Source: a virus
Lineage: Duplodnaviria > Heunggongvirae > Uroviricota > Caudoviricetes
Direction: 5' to 3' (one strand)
Length of the DNA: 49,917 nt
Virus record (IMG/VR): IMGVR_UViG_2718218131_000006
Below are positions 9,996-43,602 of the stretch, piece by piece; the first letter of the stretch is position 1; every line of letters begins with the position of its first letter. Under the pieces are notes generated by a model, which saw nothing but the letters and a program-made list of their open reading frames with translations, did not search any database and was not told the DNA's origin. The position numbers were made by a program, and so were the translations under genes.

Positions 9996-12571
9996 CGCCT
10001 GCCTCCGGAAAAGACGCCGCCATCACGCATCTGCGCCTGAATCTCATCCTGCGCCCCCTTGCGGGCCATGTCATACACCGCCTTCATCAGCTGCGGCCCC
10101 GCCTGTCCGTTGGTGCCGTCGTTCTGAATCACCACGTGATTGTTCTGATTAAAACTAATGCCTTCCGCCCGCCGCATCTGCGCCGGACTTCCGGCACCGC
10201 CCACATAACCACCTTCCGCATACCCGCGCATCAGACGATACAGGTTGCCGACGCCAATCCGGCTGGTTGCCTCCTTCGTGAAGACAAACTCCCCGCGGTG
10301 GACAATACCGGCAGGTTCGTATTTGCCACCGGTTCCCGTAAATCCTCCGGTCGCGAAATGGAAGTTCGCCGCCGCAGCCTGAATGGCCGTCCCCGTGGAG
10401 GCAGACGCCCCACCACCGAAAGCACCACCCATGGCGCTGCCAATACTCCCGACAATCCCCACCATGGCCTGCTTCAGAAAAATCTCTGTCAGCATGGAGA
10501 GCACAGAACGGGTGAAACCACGCCAGCTCTGTTCGCTGCCGGTCAGCATCGCTGCCATATTCTGTGCAATACCGTCAAAGGTCTGCGTGGCCACGCTTTT
10601 AACCTGCGAAAAACTGTCCGTCGCACTTTCTGCCCACTCGCCCCAGCCGGACTTCAGACCGGCCATCCAGCTTCCACGAAGCTGCTCCTCCGCAGACCAG
10701 GTGTTCTTCAGTGCAGATGTGGCCTTCGCCAGCGCATCCGGATTATCACCGTACACGTCACGAAGGCGCTGCTCTTCCGACTCCCGCTGCGCCTGACGGT
10801 CGGTGAGTCCGCGGGCTTTTGCGCTGATTGCCGCCTGCTTCGCACTCTGCTGCTGTTCAAACCGCGCAGCCTGCTGTGCCAGCTCATTCAGCCGTTTCTG
10901 GTGTTCAACTTTGTCTCCCAGCTCAGCCAGCTGGCGTTTGTACTCCAGCGTCTCTTTCTCATGGGTCAGCAGGGATTTTTCCTGCTCAGATAACTGCCGT
11001 TTCGTGGCTGCCTCTTTCAGGACCGCATACTGATTTTCCGCTTTCCATAAATCGCGACGCTGCTGGCTGATTTTCTCATTCGCACCGCTGTGTTTTTCCA
11101 GCGTCCGGAGCTCGGTTTCAAGCGCCAGCAGGGCAGCATGCGCCTGGTCTTCCTGACGCTCACCGGCTGACACTTTGACTCCTGACGACTTCGGCTTTTT
11201 CAGCGTCGATTCATAATCCTTTTTCGCCGCCGCCATCAGCGTGTTGTAATCCGCCTGCAGGATTTTCCCGTCTTTCAGGGCCTTATTCAGTTCTTCCTGA
11301 CGGGCGGTATATTTCTCCAGCGGCGTCAGCAGACGCTCATACGCCTTCTGCGCCTCTCCGGTATACTTCAGCTGTGATGCGTCCCGTTCGGCCCGGTCCC
11401 TGGCGGCCAGTTCACCGGCTTTTTCCATATCCGACTGCAGCGTGGCCGCTGCCAGCCCCAGACGGGCATTTTCCCGGTCATTCCATGCGCCCTGAAGGTT
11501 GGCCCGGAAAGAGGCGGTTTTTCCCCGGCGCTGGCTCCGGCTCTGGTACCACTGCCATTTTTTATCCGCCTCATCAAATGCCTTCTGTGCACTGGCGAGC
11601 ATATCCGCTGAGGACTCAGGACGACCGATATCCAGAATGGCATCCCACATCGATTTGAATGCCTTCCCTGTTTTATCCGCCCAGGTCTCCAGTGTTCCCA
11701 TGTTTTCTTTCAGGCGACGGGTCTGCTCATCAAAGCCTTTCGTGGCGATATCGTTCGCCGCCTGCAATGCCCCGGCCTCGTCTCCGGAACGCTGCAGCTG
11801 TGCAACATACGCAATCTGCTCTGCCGTCACGTTACGGAACTGGCGCGCCATCGCCATCAGTCCCGACGTCGGGTCGGTGGTCAGTTTTCCGAAAGCCTCT
11901 GCAACCTTGTCCACCTCCACACCGGATGCAGACGCAAAACGCGCGACACTCTGGTTGATGGCATCAAACTGTTCACCACCACGCACACCGGCATTCACCA
12001 GGGCTGCCAGTGACTCACTCGCCTGGTTAAACGTCAGCCCTGCGGCCTGTCCGGCTCTGGAGAGCGTCAGCATGCGATCGGCAGTCAGTCCGGACTGATT
12101 ACCGGAAAGAACCAGGGTTTTATTAAACGCTGAAAGCGTGGAATCCCCCTGGTACCAGGCGTACGCCAGCGCACCTGTCGCCACCGCCAGCGAGGTGACC
12201 CCGACCATCGGCAGGGTGATCGCACCGGCAAGTCCCCTGAACATGGGGATCATCCCGCCGAAGGAGTCCTTCACCTGACCGCCCTGTTGCAGCAGGATCA
12301 GCCAGGGATTCTGACCACCGGCAAGCTGCGTGGCGATATCCGTAAACTGTGCGGGCAGGGTTCGCATGGCCGCTTTATACTGCCCGACGGAAATCCCGGC
12401 TTTTTGTGCAGCCAGCGCCTGACGACTCAGGTTCTGCTCAACAACACCGGCGGTTTTTCTGGCGTCGGTATCCAGTCCGGAAAAATGACTCCTTACCCGG
12501 CTCATCTGCTCATCGAAACGGACCGCATCCAGACTCAGGTCAATAACAAGATCACCAACCGGCTGGGACAT
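9992..12571 (-). CDS. H: Tail tape measure protein H
   Basis: 859 aa; N-terminus MSQPVGDLVIDLSLDAVRFDEQM and long stretches match my memory of lambda H. Confidence 0.92.
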   Translation of the reverse strand: MSQPVGDLVIDLSLDAVRFDEQMSRVRSHFSGLDTDARKTAGVVEQNLSRQALAAQKAGISVGQYKAAMRTLPAQFTDIATQLAGGQNPWLILLQQGGQVKDSFGGMIPMFRGLAGAITLPMVGVTSLAVATGALAYAWYQGDSTLSAFNKTLVLSGNQSGLTADRMLTLSRAGQAAGLTFNQASESLAALVNAGVRGGEQFDAINQSVARFASASGVEVDKVAEAFGKLTTDPTSGLMAMARQFRNVTAEQIAYVAQLQRSGDEAGALQAANDIATKGFDEQTRRLKENMGTLETWADKTGKAFKSMWDAILDIGRPESSADMLASAQKAFDEADKKWQWYQSRSQRRGKTASFRANLQGAWNDRENARLGLAAATLQSDMEKAGELAARDRAERDASQLKYTGEAQKAYERLLTPLEKYTARQEELNKALKDGKILQADYNTLMAAAKKDYESTLKKPKSSGVKVSAGERQEDQAHAALLALETELRTLEKHSGANEKISQQRRDLWKAENQYAVLKEAATKRQLSEQEKSLLTHEKETLEYKRQLAELGDKVEHQKRLNELAQQAARFEQQQSAKQAAISAKARGLTDRQAQRESEEQRLRDVYGDNPDALAKATSALKNTWSAEEQLRGSWMAGLKSGWGEWAESATDSFSQVKSVATQTFDGIAQNMAAMLTGSEQSWRGFTRSVLSMLTEIFLKQAMVGIVGSIGSAMGGAFGGGASASTGTAIQAAAANFHFATGGFTGTGGKYEPAGIVHRGEFVFTKEATSRIGVGNLYRLMRGYAEGGYVGGAGSPAQMRRAEGISFNQNNHVVIQNDGTNGQAGPQLMKAVYDMARKGAQDEIQAQMRDGGVFSGGRR

Positions 12572-30966: not shown

Positions 30967-32019
30967 TTATTTCCCCACCAGCTCGTTTATCTCTTTCACT
31001 GTCTGATTAAACCGCTCTGACTCAAGCTCAACACCTAAGGCCCGACGCCCCAGCGCCATTGCTGCTTTTATTGTGGAACCGGATCCCATAAAAAAATCAG
31101 CAACCAGATCACCTGGTCGACTACTGGCATTGATTATTTGCCTGAGCATATCCGCCGGTTTCTCACACGGATGTTTCCCCGGGTAGAACTGAACGGGTTT
31201 ATGCATCCAGACATCGGCATAAGGCACGGAGACTGATACGGAGAAATAGCGCCGGAGAGATTTAAACTCATCCAGCAATTCAGAATATTTACGATTCAGT
31301 GAATCATAAGATGCCACCAGCTGGTGGTGTGGTTGTTCCAGTTGTTGTTCCTGAAACTTCTCTGCCGCTATACGGGAAAACAGTGCCTGTAACTTCCGAT
31401 AGTCATCCTCATTCGGCAACTGCCACTGACTGGCACCAAACCAGTGGGAAACCATATTTTTCTTACCTGTGGCTTCGGCAATCTGTTTTGCCGTTATACC
31501 CAGTTCGGCACGAGCATCCCTGAAATACGATATCAGCGGTGCCATTATATGCTGTTTGAGTTCCCTTTCTTTTGCCGCATAGCCGTCATTTTTTGGCTGA
31601 TATGGCCCCTGATAATGTTCAGCAAACAGAATGCGCTCTGTTGCCGGGAAATACGCCCGCAGGCTTTCCTTGTTGCACCCGTTCCAGCGTCCGGACGGCT
31701 TCGCCCAGATAATGTGGTTCAGCACATTAAAGCGCTCACGCATCATGATTTCGGTGTCAGCTGCCAGGCGATGACCACAGAACAGGTAAAGACTTCCGGC
31801 AGGCTTCAGTACCCGCCAGAACTGCGCCAGACACTGCTCCAGCCATTTCAGATAATCATCGTCCCCCTTCCACTGGTTATCCCAGCCCTCGGGCTTCACT
31901 TTAAAGTATGGCGGGTCTGTGACTATCAGATCGACAGAGTTTTCCGGTAAGGTCTGGATAAATTCCAGGCAATCAGCGTTGATTAACTCACAACTGGATA
32001 TTTTTACAGTATTAGCCAT
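30967..32019 (-). CDS. DNA N6-adenine methyltransferase
   Basis: 350 aa with catalytic motif IV DPPYF (LIVTDPPYF). Confidence 0.85.
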
Positions 32020-35214: not shown

Positions 35215-35427
35215 TCAAGTCCGCATAAACTGATACACGATCTCCCTGAGCACTGTTTTCGATACAATTCGCTCATCAGCCCGCAAAGCTCTTACCCTAA
35301 GCATGTTCCCTTTTCGATGCCATACAGCTCTGGCTCCATCCGGAAAACAATCCATTTCAGCTACAACCGACATATCGTCACAACGAATAACTGCGTACTT
35401 ACAATTCGCGGCGATCAACTTCTGCAT
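35215..35427 (-). CDS. Hypothetical small protein
   Basis: 70-aa ORF in an AT-rich islet; no family recognised. Confidence 0.3.
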   Translation of the reverse strand: MQKLIAANCKYAVIRCDDMSVVAEMDCFPDGARAVWHRKGNMLRVRALRADERIVSKTVLREIVYQFMRT

Positions 35428-35656
35428 TGTAAAACCTCTGGTATTGGATAAAACATGGCTGGAATATATCCACTACAAATAACGATTTCACTCCCAAAAA
35501 ATGCGTATTTCATGAGAAAAAACAATGACTTTTTCTTTCTGTCATTTGTATACTCTAAAAATAGAGTGTTTTTTGAGCCGCCATTCCTTAGCAAGTCCTC
35601 TGTATGGATATTGCCTGCCCTATTTAATTGTGTCACACTATGTATTACACAACGGT

Positions 35657-36040
35657 ATGGAACCAAACATGCGCATTTTCAAAAATGCCTGGTTTGAACG
35701 CTTCGCACGAAAAAATCGGATTTCCGATAAAGCTCTGCGAGAAGTCGTGGAACTAGCTGATAAGGGACTCATATCCGCAGATTTGGGTAGTGGTGTCATT
35801 AAGCAGCGATTAGCCCGAAGAGGTGGCGGTAAATCAGGCGGTTATAGGACAATAATTTTTTACCGCGTCGCAGAAAAGGCTTTTTTCATCTATGCGTACG
35901 CAAAGAATGAGAGAGAAAATATTACAGCCATCGAGGAAAACGCATTTCGAAAAGCTGCGCATCACGTTCTCAATCTTACTGATGAACAACTGGCGCAATT
36001 GATCCTGCAAGGTCAGTTTACGGAGGTACCCAATGAGTAA
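35657..36040 (+). CDS. HigB2/Gp49-like (RelE/ParE superfamily) toxin
   Basis: GSGVIKQRLARRGGGKSGGYRTIIFYRVAEKAFFIYAYAKNE matches the HigB-2/Gp49 pattern; start could be 35669. Confidence 0.65.
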   Translation: MEPNMRIFKNAWFERFARKNRISDKALREVVELADKGLISADLGSGVIKQRLARRGGGKSGGYRTIIFYRVAEKAFFIYAYAKNERENITAIEENAFRKAAHHVLNLTDEQLAQLILQGQFTEVPNE

Positions 36041-36350
36041 AAATTACCGCAGTGATGCACTTGCATCCGTACATGAAATGATGGAGTCACTTCAGGATAT
36101 TGGCGCAGTTACAAAACAAACTATGAGAGAGTTTGATGAACTCTGTCTGCAACCAGCGCCAACAATGTCGCCAGAAAGAATCCGGGCACTTCGCGAGCGC
36201 GAGCATCTGTCTCAACCTGTTTTCGCCAGATATCTTAATGTCAGTAAAAACCTCATTTCAGACTGGGAAAGGGGAATAAAGCGCCCTGGTGGCCCTGCCC
36301 TTCGTTTGCTTTCTGTGGTTGAGAAAAACGGAATTCAGTCAATCTGTTAA
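36033..36350 (+). CDS. HigA2-like XRE-family helix-turn-helix antitoxin
   Basis: 105 aa with C-terminal helix-turn-helix LSQPVFARYLNVSKNLISDWERG; GGAGG ribosome-binding site; 8-nt overlap with the toxin stop. Confidence 0.65.
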   Translation: MSKNYRSDALASVHEMMESLQDIGAVTKQTMREFDELCLQPAPTMSPERIRALREREHLSQPVFARYLNVSKNLISDWERGIKRPGGPALRLLSVVEKNGIQSIC

Positions 36351-41174: not shown

Positions 41175-42140
41175 TTACCCCCTGAAGCCCGGCGGAATTT
41201 CGGTATCCGGTTCAGAAATGTGATTCACACAACGCTGTACAGGCGAACGCCCCAGACGAATAACCAGCTCATCCCATTTTTCGCGAAGCTTTGACGGGCT
41301 CATGACGTTTTTTACCCAGAAGGGATCCCGCTGCACCCGACCAAACATTTCGCAAATTTGTCTGTGAGTTCTGCCATCCAGCATCCGCATTGTGCGCACA
41401 TCATTGGCCCATGCAGCCCAGTTGGGTTCTTTCGGTCGCATGATTTCGCCATCATCGCTGGCAGCCTGCTCGTAAAGACTCACGATTCGTCCCCAGATCC
41501 ACTGCGCACACGCTAAATCTTCCTGGCTACCCCACTGGCGTTTTTTCGCACTGAACACAACCGCGTCAGGGTGTCGGGTTAAAAAATCCTGTTCAGCCGT
41601 CTGCATGTCCGGTTGCGAAGCTTCCGGACGAGAAGTGTTTTTATTCTCTGTAGTGATCTCTGTTGTATTCTCTGTAAGATCATCAGGCCATTTTGACCCG
41701 ATGACATTGTGTCGTTTTGAACCAATGGAGCGTGTCATTTTGGCCTCTTCCATCGTGTCATTTTGACCTGATGGAGCGGCGCATTTTGACCTGATGGATT
41801 CGCTCACTTTGCCACCATCTAAAAGCTCGCTCTCGTAATTAATCGTGTAAAAATTAGTCATGTCACGCTTTGATTTGTTGAGCTTTTCGCAACGCAAAAG
41901 CCCCAGCGCTTTCAGACTTGCAAATGCGCGTTTTAACGTTGACTCTGACCAGAACGGGAACTGTTCCAGCCATTGTTCTGTTGTGTTATAAATCCAGCGA
42001 ACACCATCACATTCCATGCCGGAACCGGTATCTCTCAACCAGTAATGCAGCTGCTGCAACACGATGGCTTCGTTCAGACCAATTTTCATCGCCAGCTGCG
42101 TGTTAATAACCAGTGGGCGTTCAGCAAAAAGAAGACTCAT
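41175..42140 (-). CDS. Replication initiator (O-like organiser) with origin iterons inside the coding sequence
   Basis: Position between the cro-proximal gene and the DnaC-like gene; contains an iteron array; start set at MSLLFAERP. Confidence 0.7.
   Translation of the reverse strand: MSLLFAERPLVINTQLAMKIGLNEAIVLQQLHYWLRDTGSGMECDGVRWIYNTTEQWLEQFPFWSESTLKRAFASLKALGLLRCEKLNKSKRDMTNFYTINYESELLDGGKVSESIRSKCAAPSGQNDTMEEAKMTRSIGSKRHNVIGSKWPDDLTENTTEITTENKNTSRPEASQPDMQTAEQDFLTRHPDAVVFSAKKRQWGSQEDLACAQWIWGRIVSLYEQAASDDGEIMRPKEPNWAAWANDVRTMRMLDGRTHRQICEMFGRVQRDPFWVKNVMSPSKLREKWDELVIRLGRSPVQRCVNHISEPDTEIPPGFRG
41685..41805. repeat. Putative origin iterons: 5-6 copies of about CATTTTGACCTGATGGA at 23-24 bp spacing, with an AT-rich block at 41820-41870
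   Basis: Repeats read directly, for example ccattttgacccgatg, gtcattttgacctgatggagcg, gcgcattttgacctgatggattcg. Confidence 0.65.
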
Positions 42141-42642
42141 AATTCCATCCGACTTTTTGTTGATATTGCTGACGATACGCACGCTTGAAAGCAATGGCTT
42201 TTTCTATAAGCTCGTCAGTCTCACGTTCCACAACAGCTGGATCCGCAAAAAGCAGCCCGGACTCCACCACATCGCCATATTCTTTGTTTAACCCGGCGAT
42301 CATGTACGTAATGCTTTTTCCGTCAGTAATTTCACAATACAACCTGAAATCGCTGATCCGGATAGCCTCCATAATTGCCGGAATCAGCGCCGTGAATTTT
42401 TCACGCTTATCCCTGGTGTCGATAGCTTTCCAGCGTTCGAATATCTTCACCCTGTTAACGCCCAGCGCCCGTTGATCAACCGCGCCATCATCAAACGTGA
42501 CGCGATGAACATCGATGTTCGGGCGTTCTTTCAGAGCCCAGAATGCTTCCGTGATTAATATCGTCGCCTGCTCCTGCGTCATTCCTGGTCGGCATACCCA
42601 GGCATCCAGAGCCTCGCGAGCCTGCTCAGGAGTGAATATCAT
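42121..42642 (-). CDS. Hypothetical early protein (possibly YdaT/cII-like)
   Basis: 173-aa ORF between the cro-like and O-like genes; family assignment is a guess. Confidence 0.5.
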   Translation of the reverse strand: MIFTPEQAREALDAWVCRPGMTQEQATILITEAFWALKERPNIDVHRVTFDDGAVDQRALGVNRVKIFERWKAIDTRDKREKFTALIPAIMEAIRISDFRLYCEITDGKSITYMIAGLNKEYGDVVESGLLFADPAVVERETDELIEKAIAFKRAYRQQYQQKVGWNYESSFC

Positions 42643-42901
42643 TGTTCACCGCCAGTGATTCATTCGACATACACTTATTTTCACAAGGTAGTCCATCTGT
42701 TGGGTTGGGATAAATGTCAGGGCGAAGTTCGTGGGGAGTAATTTCCCAATTCAGTAATGCACAGAGTGACGACACGCGTTCAGCAGGAACCTTGCCTTTA
42801 ATGAACCACTTGCCTACGGCCTGGGAGCTAATGCCAAAGTGTTTGCCAATGTCAGTTTTCGACATTTTTTTAGAGATCTTATCGTGAATTTGATTACTCA
42901 T
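42626..42901 (-). CDS. Cro/DicC-like small helix-turn-helix regulator
   Basis: Divergent from the repressor; MSKTDIGKHFGISSQAVGKWF resembles the DicC/YdaS N-terminus; start could be 42864. Confidence 0.6.
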   Translation of the reverse strand: MSNQIHDKISKKMSKTDIGKHFGISSQAVGKWFIKGKVPAERVSSLCALLNWEITPHELRPDIYPNPTDGLPCENKCMSNESLAVNNDIHS

Positions 42902-42939
42902 ACTTTCCACCAGTACTATTAATTTCACCTACGCTACCA

Positions 42940-42980
42940 TCAAAAACTATAAGTTTCAACACAAAACCTATAGTTTTGCT
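42940..42980. promoter_or_regulatory. Two near-palindromic operator-like sites (AAAACYATAGTTTT type) between the divergent cro-like and repressor genes
   Basis: aaaaactataagttt (42942-42957) and aaaacctatagtttt (42963-42977); TATACT -10-like hexamer at 42991. Confidence 0.5.
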
Positions 42981-43013
42981 GATTGGTGAAACCTTTGGTT
43001 GTATACTTAAAAA

Positions 43014-43424
43014 ATGAGTAAAATAAACCATCCAATATTTGCTGAGAGAGTTCGGCAAGCAATGAGCGAACATGGCTGGTCGTTAGCCGGTCTGGCTAAA
43101 AAGGTTATGCTGTCCCATACCGCTGTGCGTAAGTGGGCAACAGGAGAAACCATTGCCAGCGGAGAAAGATTAAAAAGACTTGCCGCGGTAACAGGAAAAC
43201 CAGAACATTGGTTTTTTATGCCGCTAAATGAACATTCAAAGGAAGAAGATGCACCACCACTAATCCAGCTTGACGACAAAGAAAAGGCGCTATTGTCCCT
43301 TTTTAATCAGTTGCCAGAAACGGAAAAGCTGAGACTAATCATGCACACAAAAAGCATTCTTCATGAAATGGATCTTCTAAAAAACGATGTATACGACATA
43401 ATCAATGATATTCAAAAACAATAA
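43014..43424 (+). CDS. Prophage repressor (DicA/cI-like, XRE helix-turn-helix)
   Basis: N-terminal helix-turn-helix AERVRQAMSEHGWSLAGLAKKVMLSHTAVRKW; KALLSLFNQLPETEK resembles DicA. Confidence 0.75.
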   Translation: MSKINHPIFAERVRQAMSEHGWSLAGLAKKVMLSHTAVRKWATGETIASGERLKRLAAVTGKPEHWFFMPLNEHSKEEDAPPLIQLDDKEKALLSLFNQLPETEKLRLIMHTKSILHEMDLLKNDVYDIINDIQKQ

Positions 43425-43432
43425 GTTACATG

Positions 43433-43460
43433 AAAAAAGCGCCTCCCTGGCGCTTTTTTT
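43433..43460 (+). terminator. Rho-independent terminator after the repressor gene
   Basis: GCGCC-tccct-GGCGC then TTTTTTT. Confidence 0.75.
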
Positions 43461-43496
43461 ATCCTCACAAATAAAACTTTATGTTCCATTGCCTAT

Positions 43497-43525
43497 TGAC
43501 CAATAAAACCAATAGTTTTACCATT
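43497..43525 (+). promoter_or_regulatory. Putative early-left promoter with an operator-like palindrome in the spacer
   Basis: TTGACC, 17-nt spacer, TACCAT; spacer contains aaaaccaatagtttt, a third copy of the operator-like motif. Confidence 0.45.
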
Positions 43526-43602
43526 CATTCCATCAACAACGAACCGCATCGTTGTCAGGCTAAAGTTCCGCTACCCCGGCGTTAAGGGGAAATGAGGTCA
43601 GC

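Follow-up and report, generated by a model that had tools for sequence, protein, structure and literature searches.

Here, we report that the 15-bp near-palindromes found on both sides of the repressor gene in the virus record IMGVR_UViG_2718218131_000006 are very probably the operators of a lambdoid immunity switch of the Gifsy/Qin type, with binding predicted from the sequence and from homologous systems. The window, meaning the whole stretch of DNA that was analysed (49,917 nucleotides, 49.9 kb), is one whole lambdoid prophage that runs from an effector gene with EspF repeats at its start to the stop codon of int at its end. Five conserved sites are present, three in the right operator (OR), between the repressor gene and a divergent gene in the position of lambda cro, and two in the left operator (OL) beyond the repressor gene. 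They lie on or close to the predicted promoters of the rightward operon (PR), the leftward operon (PL) and the repressor gene (PRM). The original prediction had named three copies flanking the repressor, and all three are present, but the number was too low. The five sites and a doubtful sixth match are given below with their scores from a symmetrised matrix that was made from the three strong copies alone and run over the whole window, about 100,000 positions.

42943 to 42957: OR1, strong copy, AAAACTATAAGTTTC, matrix score 22.4, over the PR spacer and -35
42963 to 42977: OR2, strong copy, AAAACCTATAGTTTT, score 23.7, centred about -44 from the predicted PRM start
42988 to 43002: OR3, weaker copy, GAAACCTTTGGTTGT, score 14.6 (rank 4), over the PRM spacer and the first base of its -10
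43473 to 43487: OL2, weaker copy, AAAACTTTATGTTCC, score 10.7 (rank 8), 8 nucleotides 5' of the PL -35
43505 to 43519: OL1, strongest copy, AAAACCAATAGTTTT, score 24.6, in the PL spacer and over the first base of its -10
43415 to 43429: doubtful sixth copy, AAAACAATAAGTTAC, score 11.6 (rank 6), over the repressor stop codon

When OR2 was used as query with at most two mismatches on both strands of the 49.9 kb, only OR1, OR2 and OL1 matched, and OL1 differs from OR2 at a single base out of 15. Six of the eight highest matrix scores in the window fall inside 577 bp, and the local AT-rich composition would give 0.0025 matches with a score of at least 14.6, and 0.02 with a score of at least 10.7, in the 173 local non-coding bases. 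The spacer between the repressor gene and ydaS, 112 bp long, harbours three of the copies, while OL2 is found 32 bp, or three helical turns, upstream of OL1. The match at 43415-43429 covers the stop codon and is lacking in the relatives L017 and L018 as well as in Gifsy, and it is therefore considered doubtful.

The promoter elements and the terminator to which the sites relate are the following, and the promoters are predictions.

42931 to 42936, minus strand: predicted PR -10, TAGCGT, preceded by TGg (extended -10), placed by consensus and conservation only
42954 to 42959, minus strand: predicted PR -35, TTGAAA, 17 nucleotides from the -10, its TTG invariant in 13 relatives
43002 to 43007, plus strand: predicted PRM -10, TATACT, of which TA.A.T is invariant in relatives
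43430 to 43462, plus strand: intrinsic terminator of the repressor gene, 14-bp stem with T-run, -19 kcal/mol, z = -7.7
43496 to 43524, plus strand: PL-type promoter, TTGACC-17-TACCAT, from a promoter scan, with OL1 in its spacer

This arrangement agrees with what had been claimed for the individual copies. OR1 and OR2 lie in the divergent intergenic region between the repressor and the cro-like gene, as gene content and conservation both indicate; the third copy, OL1, sits in the spacer of TTGACC-17-TACCAT where the promoter scan places it; and gene content together with collinearity to the Qin and Gifsy-2 immunity regions supports a PL-like promoter that follows the repressor terminator and has the early-left operon behind it. 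Operators overlap -35 or -10 elements of PR, PRM and PL, whose key hexamer bases are invariant in the 13 relatives: OR1 shares 4 nucleotides with the predicted PR -35, and the end of OR2 falls a single base short of the predicted PRM -35 position. The strong sites, with scores of 22-25, are located over PR and PL; of the weak sites, the one at PRM scores 15 and the one 5' of PL scores 11. The repressor ATG begins 7 nucleotides after the predicted PRM -10 without a Shine-Dalgarno sequence, and the six-base gap between the -10 and the ATG is found in 11 of the 12 aligned relatives (five bases in L017). Over the 13 relatives of the operator alignment, this spacing ranges from 5 to 7 nucleotides. 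Most aligned relatives read TAAAAT-N6-ATG, with the hexamer reading TAAAAT-A in L048 and L068. As the ATG is this close to the -10 and the spacing is kept in relatives, a leaderless repressor mRNA is suggested, as for lambda cI. The terminator was missed by a simple scan, which absorbed the T-run into the stem, and was seen by folding; a hairpin with a T-run occupies this position in all relatives.

Relatives were gathered by means of the repressor and comprised 5 genome loci and the best 80 viral loci of IMG/VR, to which Gifsy-1 and Gifsy-2, a Klebsiella phage, two alternative E. coli cassettes and K-12 Qin were added. One architecture is common to all loci collected. Among the 13 relatives that were aligned over the operators, the T, the A and the final T of the TAnnnT of the PR -10 are invariant (columns A33, T37 and A38), as are AAA and GTT of OR1, the TTG of the minus-strand -35 (42957-59), the TG at 42980-81 in the expected position of the PRM -35, and AAAC...GGTTGTA.A.T over OR3 and the PRM -10, while the half-site columns of OR2 are conserved. 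On the OL side the invariant columns are AA/TT of OL2, T.AC of the PL -35, AAC/G.T of OL1 and.A...T of the PL -10. Column conservation in OR is 0.85 in sites and hexamers against 0.56 elsewhere, with an identity to the window of 0.68-0.84 within features and 0.29-0.46 outside them; in OL the corresponding column conservation is 0.78 within and 0.61 outside. The symmetric pattern, with positions 2-5 and 11-14 conserved and a variable centre, is what would be expected of sites bound by a dimeric helix-turn-helix protein.

These observations also bear on whether the likeness among the copies could be fortuitous, or a matter of generic AT-rich promoter elements that have no dedicated binding protein, which we find barely credible. 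The region is indeed AT-rich and the sites contain -10-like TATAGT strings, but three matches were observed where dinucleotide-preserving shuffles give 0.02, the expectations from local composition do not exceed 0.02, the half-sites are symmetric and have stayed invariant where the spacers of relatives diverge, and the same sequence recurs at three promoters. The original prediction had proposed a motif search for prophages of the same immunity, and a scan of IMG/VR with a degenerate OR1-OR2 pattern recovered all close relatives, that is, 8 of 8 contigs with a repressor of 76% identity or more, with the match just upstream of the gene. The same pattern matched 70 unrelated viral contigs, mostly at hairpin terminators, which speaks in favour of coincidence and makes the pattern alone not a specific probe.

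The proteins encoded on either side of OR are candidates for reading the sites, and their genes are listed here together with the gene that follows on the minus strand.

43014 to 43424, plus strand: repressor gene, 136 amino acids, Pfam HTH_3 at residues 14-67
42626 to 42901, minus strand: gene in the Cro position, 91-amino-acid YdaS-family helix-turn-helix protein (Pfam PF15943, 39 bits; PHROG 35 'transcriptional repressor', E 2e-21)
42121 to 42642, minus strand: ydaT-family gene in the position of lambda cII (Pfam YdaT_toxin; PHROG 163 'CII-like transcriptional activator', E 4e-40)

The lambda-style layout of OR and OL that had been proposed is upheld by gene content, conservation and collinearity, but the repressor is of the Gifsy/DicA type without an S24 domain and not of the lambda CI type. 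No peptidase S24 domain was found in the 136-amino-acid protein, for which Pfam gives HTH_3 as the sole domain, and its only Ala-Gly lies within the helix-turn-helix domain; the protein thus does not show the C-terminal S24 peptidase with Ser/Lys dyad and the linker cleavage site of lambda CI and LexA. Instead it has the traits of the short repressors GtgR/GfoR of Gifsy and DicA, namely a length of about 135-150 amino acids, an N-terminal Cro/C1-type helix-turn-helix, a conserved helical C-terminal part and similarity to GtgR. It is 63% identical over 135 amino acids to the repressor of Gifsy-1 and Gifsy-2 in Salmonella LT2 (GtgR, the same as GogR), and the alignment of the family has 33 invariant columns, a C-terminal LFNQLPE.EK motif among them. 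With the NCBIfam model for DicA (NF007257) it reaches 47.6 bits against a cut-off of 101 and is, as judged from sequence, a relative of DicA and not a DicA orthologue. A sequence search of solved structures returned no relative. The recognition helices read SHTAVRKW in the repressor and SSQAVGKW in YdaS.

Taken together, the locus displays what is characteristic of a lambdoid switch: a divergent repressor and cro with a repeated operator, a further copy at PL beyond the repressor, and an exchangeable module. Several homologous systems have been studied experimentally. GtgR shifts a fragment of the Gifsy-2 right operator in gel-shift assays and is released by the antirepressor GftA (PMC3121763), DicA binds Oc and represses dicC and dicBp while activating dicA (PMC3441716, PMC10448788), and in CP-933P the overlapping operators on PR and PRM are protected in footprints by both PaaR2 and YdaS, which regulate a PL too, with YdaS acting like Cro and preferring PRM (PMC8630535). 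By homology with these systems, a dimer of the 136-amino-acid repressor would bind the 15-bp sites through AAAAC / GTTTT half-sites separated by a variable 5-bp centre. Occupancy of OR1 would shut PR and with it the rightward lytic operon (ydaS, ydaT and the replication genes), and occupancy of OL1 would shut PL and the leftward operon (ydfABC, the DicF-like RNA, dicB, exonuclease, xis and int). OR2, at about -44, is placed like the sites through which lambda CI and DicA turn on their own promoters, and the homologues suggest that repressor bound there may stimulate PRM, whereas the weak OR3 over the PRM spacer would curb repressor synthesis at high concentration. OL2, at its distance of three helical turns, could bind cooperatively with OL1. 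The YdaS-type Cro most likely uses the same sites with the reverse preference, OR3 first.

A different assignment would have the sites read only by the Cro-like YdaS, with the 136-amino-acid protein recognizing something else or acting indirectly. OR3 is the most conserved of the sites and the YdaS helix SSQAVGKW is near-invariant across clades with the AAC-N5-GTT core, both of which are in keeping with such an assignment. It is nevertheless improbable, since the strongest sites are found on PR and PL, the promoters that a lysogenic repressor must close, and the repressor helix SHTAVRKW too is conserved together with the operator core. Moreover, GtgR, with its 63% identity, binds its OR fragment (PMC3121763), and both proteins of CP-933P footprint the same region (PMC8630535).

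The reading as operators also accords with the way in which the sites are inherited, as all five are contained in a mosaic cassette.

42735 to 43530 (approximate): exchangeable immunity cassette of about 800 bp, delimited by identity to the alternative cassette L001

Compared with L001, an E. coli prophage with another repressor, the window has an identity of 0.33-0.83 between about 42730 and about 43540 and of 0.93 or more on either side, and homology to the widespread ydfA region begins at 43528, right after the PL -10. Besides the repressor gene and its terminator, the cassette takes in OR, OL, PL and the part of cro that encodes the helix-turn-helix. Other cassettes in the same place have repeats of their own at OR and OL: ACAAG-N5-CTTGT in L005 and L008, GTAC-type repeats in L002, TGAAAG-type repeats in L001 and TTGTTAG-type repeats (Oc) in K-12 Qin. 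The present cassette is rare: of 5,426 complete E. coli genomes, 4 contain it in full, and among the best 80 viral loci retained, 5 IMG/VR contigs have it. In six further loci with the same cassette, five from IMG/VR with an identical repressor and one from E. coli Z1323CEC0019, no substitution was seen inside the sites, although this is a small sample; the few changes, at 43447, 43491 and 43492, are all between sites. Z1323CEC0019 is 99.6% identical to the window over a 1.2-kb region, and its annotation includes the same YdaS-type coding sequence of 91 amino acids. A repeat that is one base from OR2 of the window was encountered in another setting: IMG/VR contig 3300021431_000594 (L122), which has no homologue of the window repressor, carries five direct repeats GAAAACCTATGGTTTTT at 10440-10555, flanked by an S24-type repressor gene on one side and an integrase-like gene on the other, and the same repeat is also present on about ten other metagenomic contigs.

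The exchange of sites along with the cassette makes it very unlikely that they serve another factor, be it the CII-like YdaT or a host nucleoid protein (IHF, Fis or H-NS), given that ydaT is located in the common flank of at least 93% identity and that a host factor needs no cassette-specific sequences. In lambda, CII-type sites belong to an establishment promoter, and this is where they would be expected, not in the spacers of PR and PL. In favour of another factor, H-NS/Cnu modulates the binding of DicA at Qin (PMC3441716), and YdaT is reported to be a DNA-binding regulator in Rac (PMC11879457). As operators of the immunity switch, the five sites could plausibly set a unique immunity specificity. 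The AAC-N5-GTT core and a recognition helix SHT(A/S)V(R/Q)(K/N)W are common to several clades, Gifsy-2 among them, and cross-immunity with Gifsy-2-type phages is thus possible.

Some of the results weigh against the switch as outlined and should be considered together. The PR -10 (TAGCGT) is poor, the promoter scan did not report the predicted PR, and no good -35 was found for PRM. OR1 and OR2 are 20 bp apart from start to start in the window compared with 23-24 bp in every aligned relative, corresponding to a deletion of 3-4 bp between the two strong sites by which their helical phasing is altered. In a crude comparison of 13 cassettes, the best 15-mer in OL matched the cassette's own OR at a mean of 13.0 of 15 bases and a foreign OR at 12.0, with a background of 10-12 of 15; because this background is high and the core is common, the matching does not discriminate among close clades. 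Finally, the repressor and the Cro protein are never separated in the compared loci, so the comparison cannot tell which of the two reads the sites.

GtgR and DicA are devoid of a cleavage domain, and so is the present repressor; it is therefore expected that induction proceeds through an antirepressor and not by the cleavage route of lambda. With Gifsy-2 DinI, GftA and its neighbours and Qin Rem as queries, tblastn over the whole prophage gave nothing below E = 0.1 except an unrelated nin-region protein, and a PHROG scan of 20 small or neighbouring open reading frames (ORFs) revealed no antirepressor. There is likewise no convincing LexA box in the prophage, where CTGT-N8-ACAG has 25 matches against 14.9 expected, none of them both AT-rich and well placed; the candidates at 53-68, inside the effector gene, and at 31994, over the start of a methyltransferase gene, were rejected. 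A 70-amino-acid ORF at 35215-35427 on the minus strand (phrog_1813) has the position that rem occupies in Qin, between a DUF968 gene and a toxin-antitoxin pair. Its identification as Rem was not convincing (BLASTP E 0.006), and Rem and GftA belong to different groups, phrog_340 and phrog_4847, respectively. The searches of the prophage brought up no further candidate, and an antirepressor may be unrecognised or encoded in trans. A more far-reaching possibility, which we put forward tentatively and hold to be rather unlikely, is that induction depends on the trans-acting antirepressor of another prophage or on an undescribed family. As the recognition helix and the operator core are common to the window and Gifsy-2-type phages of Salmonella, cross-immunity or cross-induction may also occur between prophages of different genera. 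If induction did depend on such an antirepressor, the spread of the effector gene and the expression of DicF and DicB would hinge on a trans-encoded or undescribed antirepressor.

The remaining gene content is that of a lambdoid prophage, and its features outside the switch include the following.

1 to 873, plus strand: 290-amino-acid protein with five 47-amino-acid EspF proline-rich repeats (Pfam PF04806, 444 bits)
43531 to 43602, plus strand: leader of the PL transcript 5' of ydfA, conserved
48552 to 48830: xis, close to the window end
48799 to 49917: int of the lambda type, which ends the window

The product of 1-873, whose gene is at the far end of the prophage, is from its sequence a type III effector like TccP/EspFU. 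On the minus strand beyond ydaT, a 339-amino-acid ORF, placed like lambda O and without a Pfam match, and a DnaC/IstB-type gene are found. In the other direction, the order 3' of the PL-like promoter is ydfA, ydfB, a ydfC-like gene, a DicF-like RNA, dicB, an exonuclease VIII-like gene, xis and int. The DicF-like RNA at 45329-45379 matches Rfam RF00039 with 34.1 bits, under the gathering score of 48, and dicB at 45568-45756 matches Pfam DicB with 129 bits. With these two in the PL operon, the operators would also control two cell-division inhibitors, as in Qin. An Rfam search gave no match in the operator/repressor region.

The PL leader is near-identical across heteroimmune relatives, K-12 Qin and Gifsy included, and contains two potential hairpins, ACAACGA/TCGTTGT at 43536-43555 and CCCC-GGCGTTAA-GGGG at 43574-43589, the latter just 5' of the ribosome-binding site of ydfA. 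Only one compensatory pair was observed among the relatives compared, by which an RNA structure is not established. A nut-like function, a role in stability or one as a processing site could be envisaged for the leader. In the nin region, a RelE-family toxin gene (35525-36040) and a helix-turn-helix gene (36033-36350) form a toxin-antitoxin pair with its own perfect palindrome, ACTCTA-AAAA-TAGAGT at 35552-35567, which adjoins a TATACT -10. The three weak matches to the operator motif at 35431, 35519 and 35558, in the AT-rich promoter region of this pair, were rejected as probable chance occurrences.

What is gained is a concrete map of the five operators of a rare immunity type. The prophage to which it applies encodes an effector as well as DicF and DicB. 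The map tells which bases to mutate in order to lock the prophage on or off, and it flags that induction probably needs an antirepressor not yet located. In conceptual terms the locus is a rare sequence variant of an ordinary genetic switch, with nothing new as compared with lambda, Gifsy or Qin.

Gifsy-2, together with Gifsy-1 of LT2, is alike in its recognition helix, SHTSVRKW compared with SHTAVRKW in the window repressor (PMC3121763). Gifsy-2 has the same five-site layout and AAC-N5-GTT core, with OR1 on the PR -35, OR3 abutting the PRM -10 and OL1 in the PL spacer, and likewise a leaderless-type spacing, a homologous PL leader and a YdaS-type Cro. It differs in the outer operator bases, GGTTCC / CGAAC against AAAAC / GTTTT in the window, and in the distance between OR1 and OR2, which is 24 bp there and 20 bp here. 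Gifsy also possesses a LexA-controlled dinI-antirepressor module, none of which was found in the window, and its downstream genes in the left operon and its host genus are not those of the window.

Qin of E. coli K-12 is collinear, with ydaS-like/dicC, repressor, terminator and a PL that has an operator in its spacer and a second one upstream (PMC10448788, PMC3441716). Its dicBp, TTGACC-17-TAATCT, has the same position and the same -35 as the PL of the window (PMC10448788), and a near-identical leader is followed by ydfA-ydfB-ydfC-DicF-dicB as in the window; the repressor is short and non-cleavable in both. The Qin repressor is a distant one, however, its operator is another sequence (Oc = TTGTTAGTCATAACTAACAA), and the window is without a homologue of Rem. 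In CP-933P/Sp12 of E. coli O157:H7, a CI analogue is divergent from ydaS (Cro) and ydaT (the CII analogue), and the operators, which lie across PR and PRM, give footprints with either protein, with more operators at PL (PMC8630535); the repressor family and the consensus are different, there are four 18-bp repeats, and a toxin-antitoxin pair is cotranscribed with the repressor.

With lambda, the window shares strong sites on PR and PL and a weak one on PRM, a site in the activating position by the PRM -35, a probable leaderless repressor mRNA, and genes of the cII-O-P type after cro. The window repressor is distinguished from that of lambda by having no S24 domain, and its sites measure 15 bp as compared with 17 bp. 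Lambda has three OL sites whereas two are conserved in the window, where OL is only about 0.5 kb from OR.

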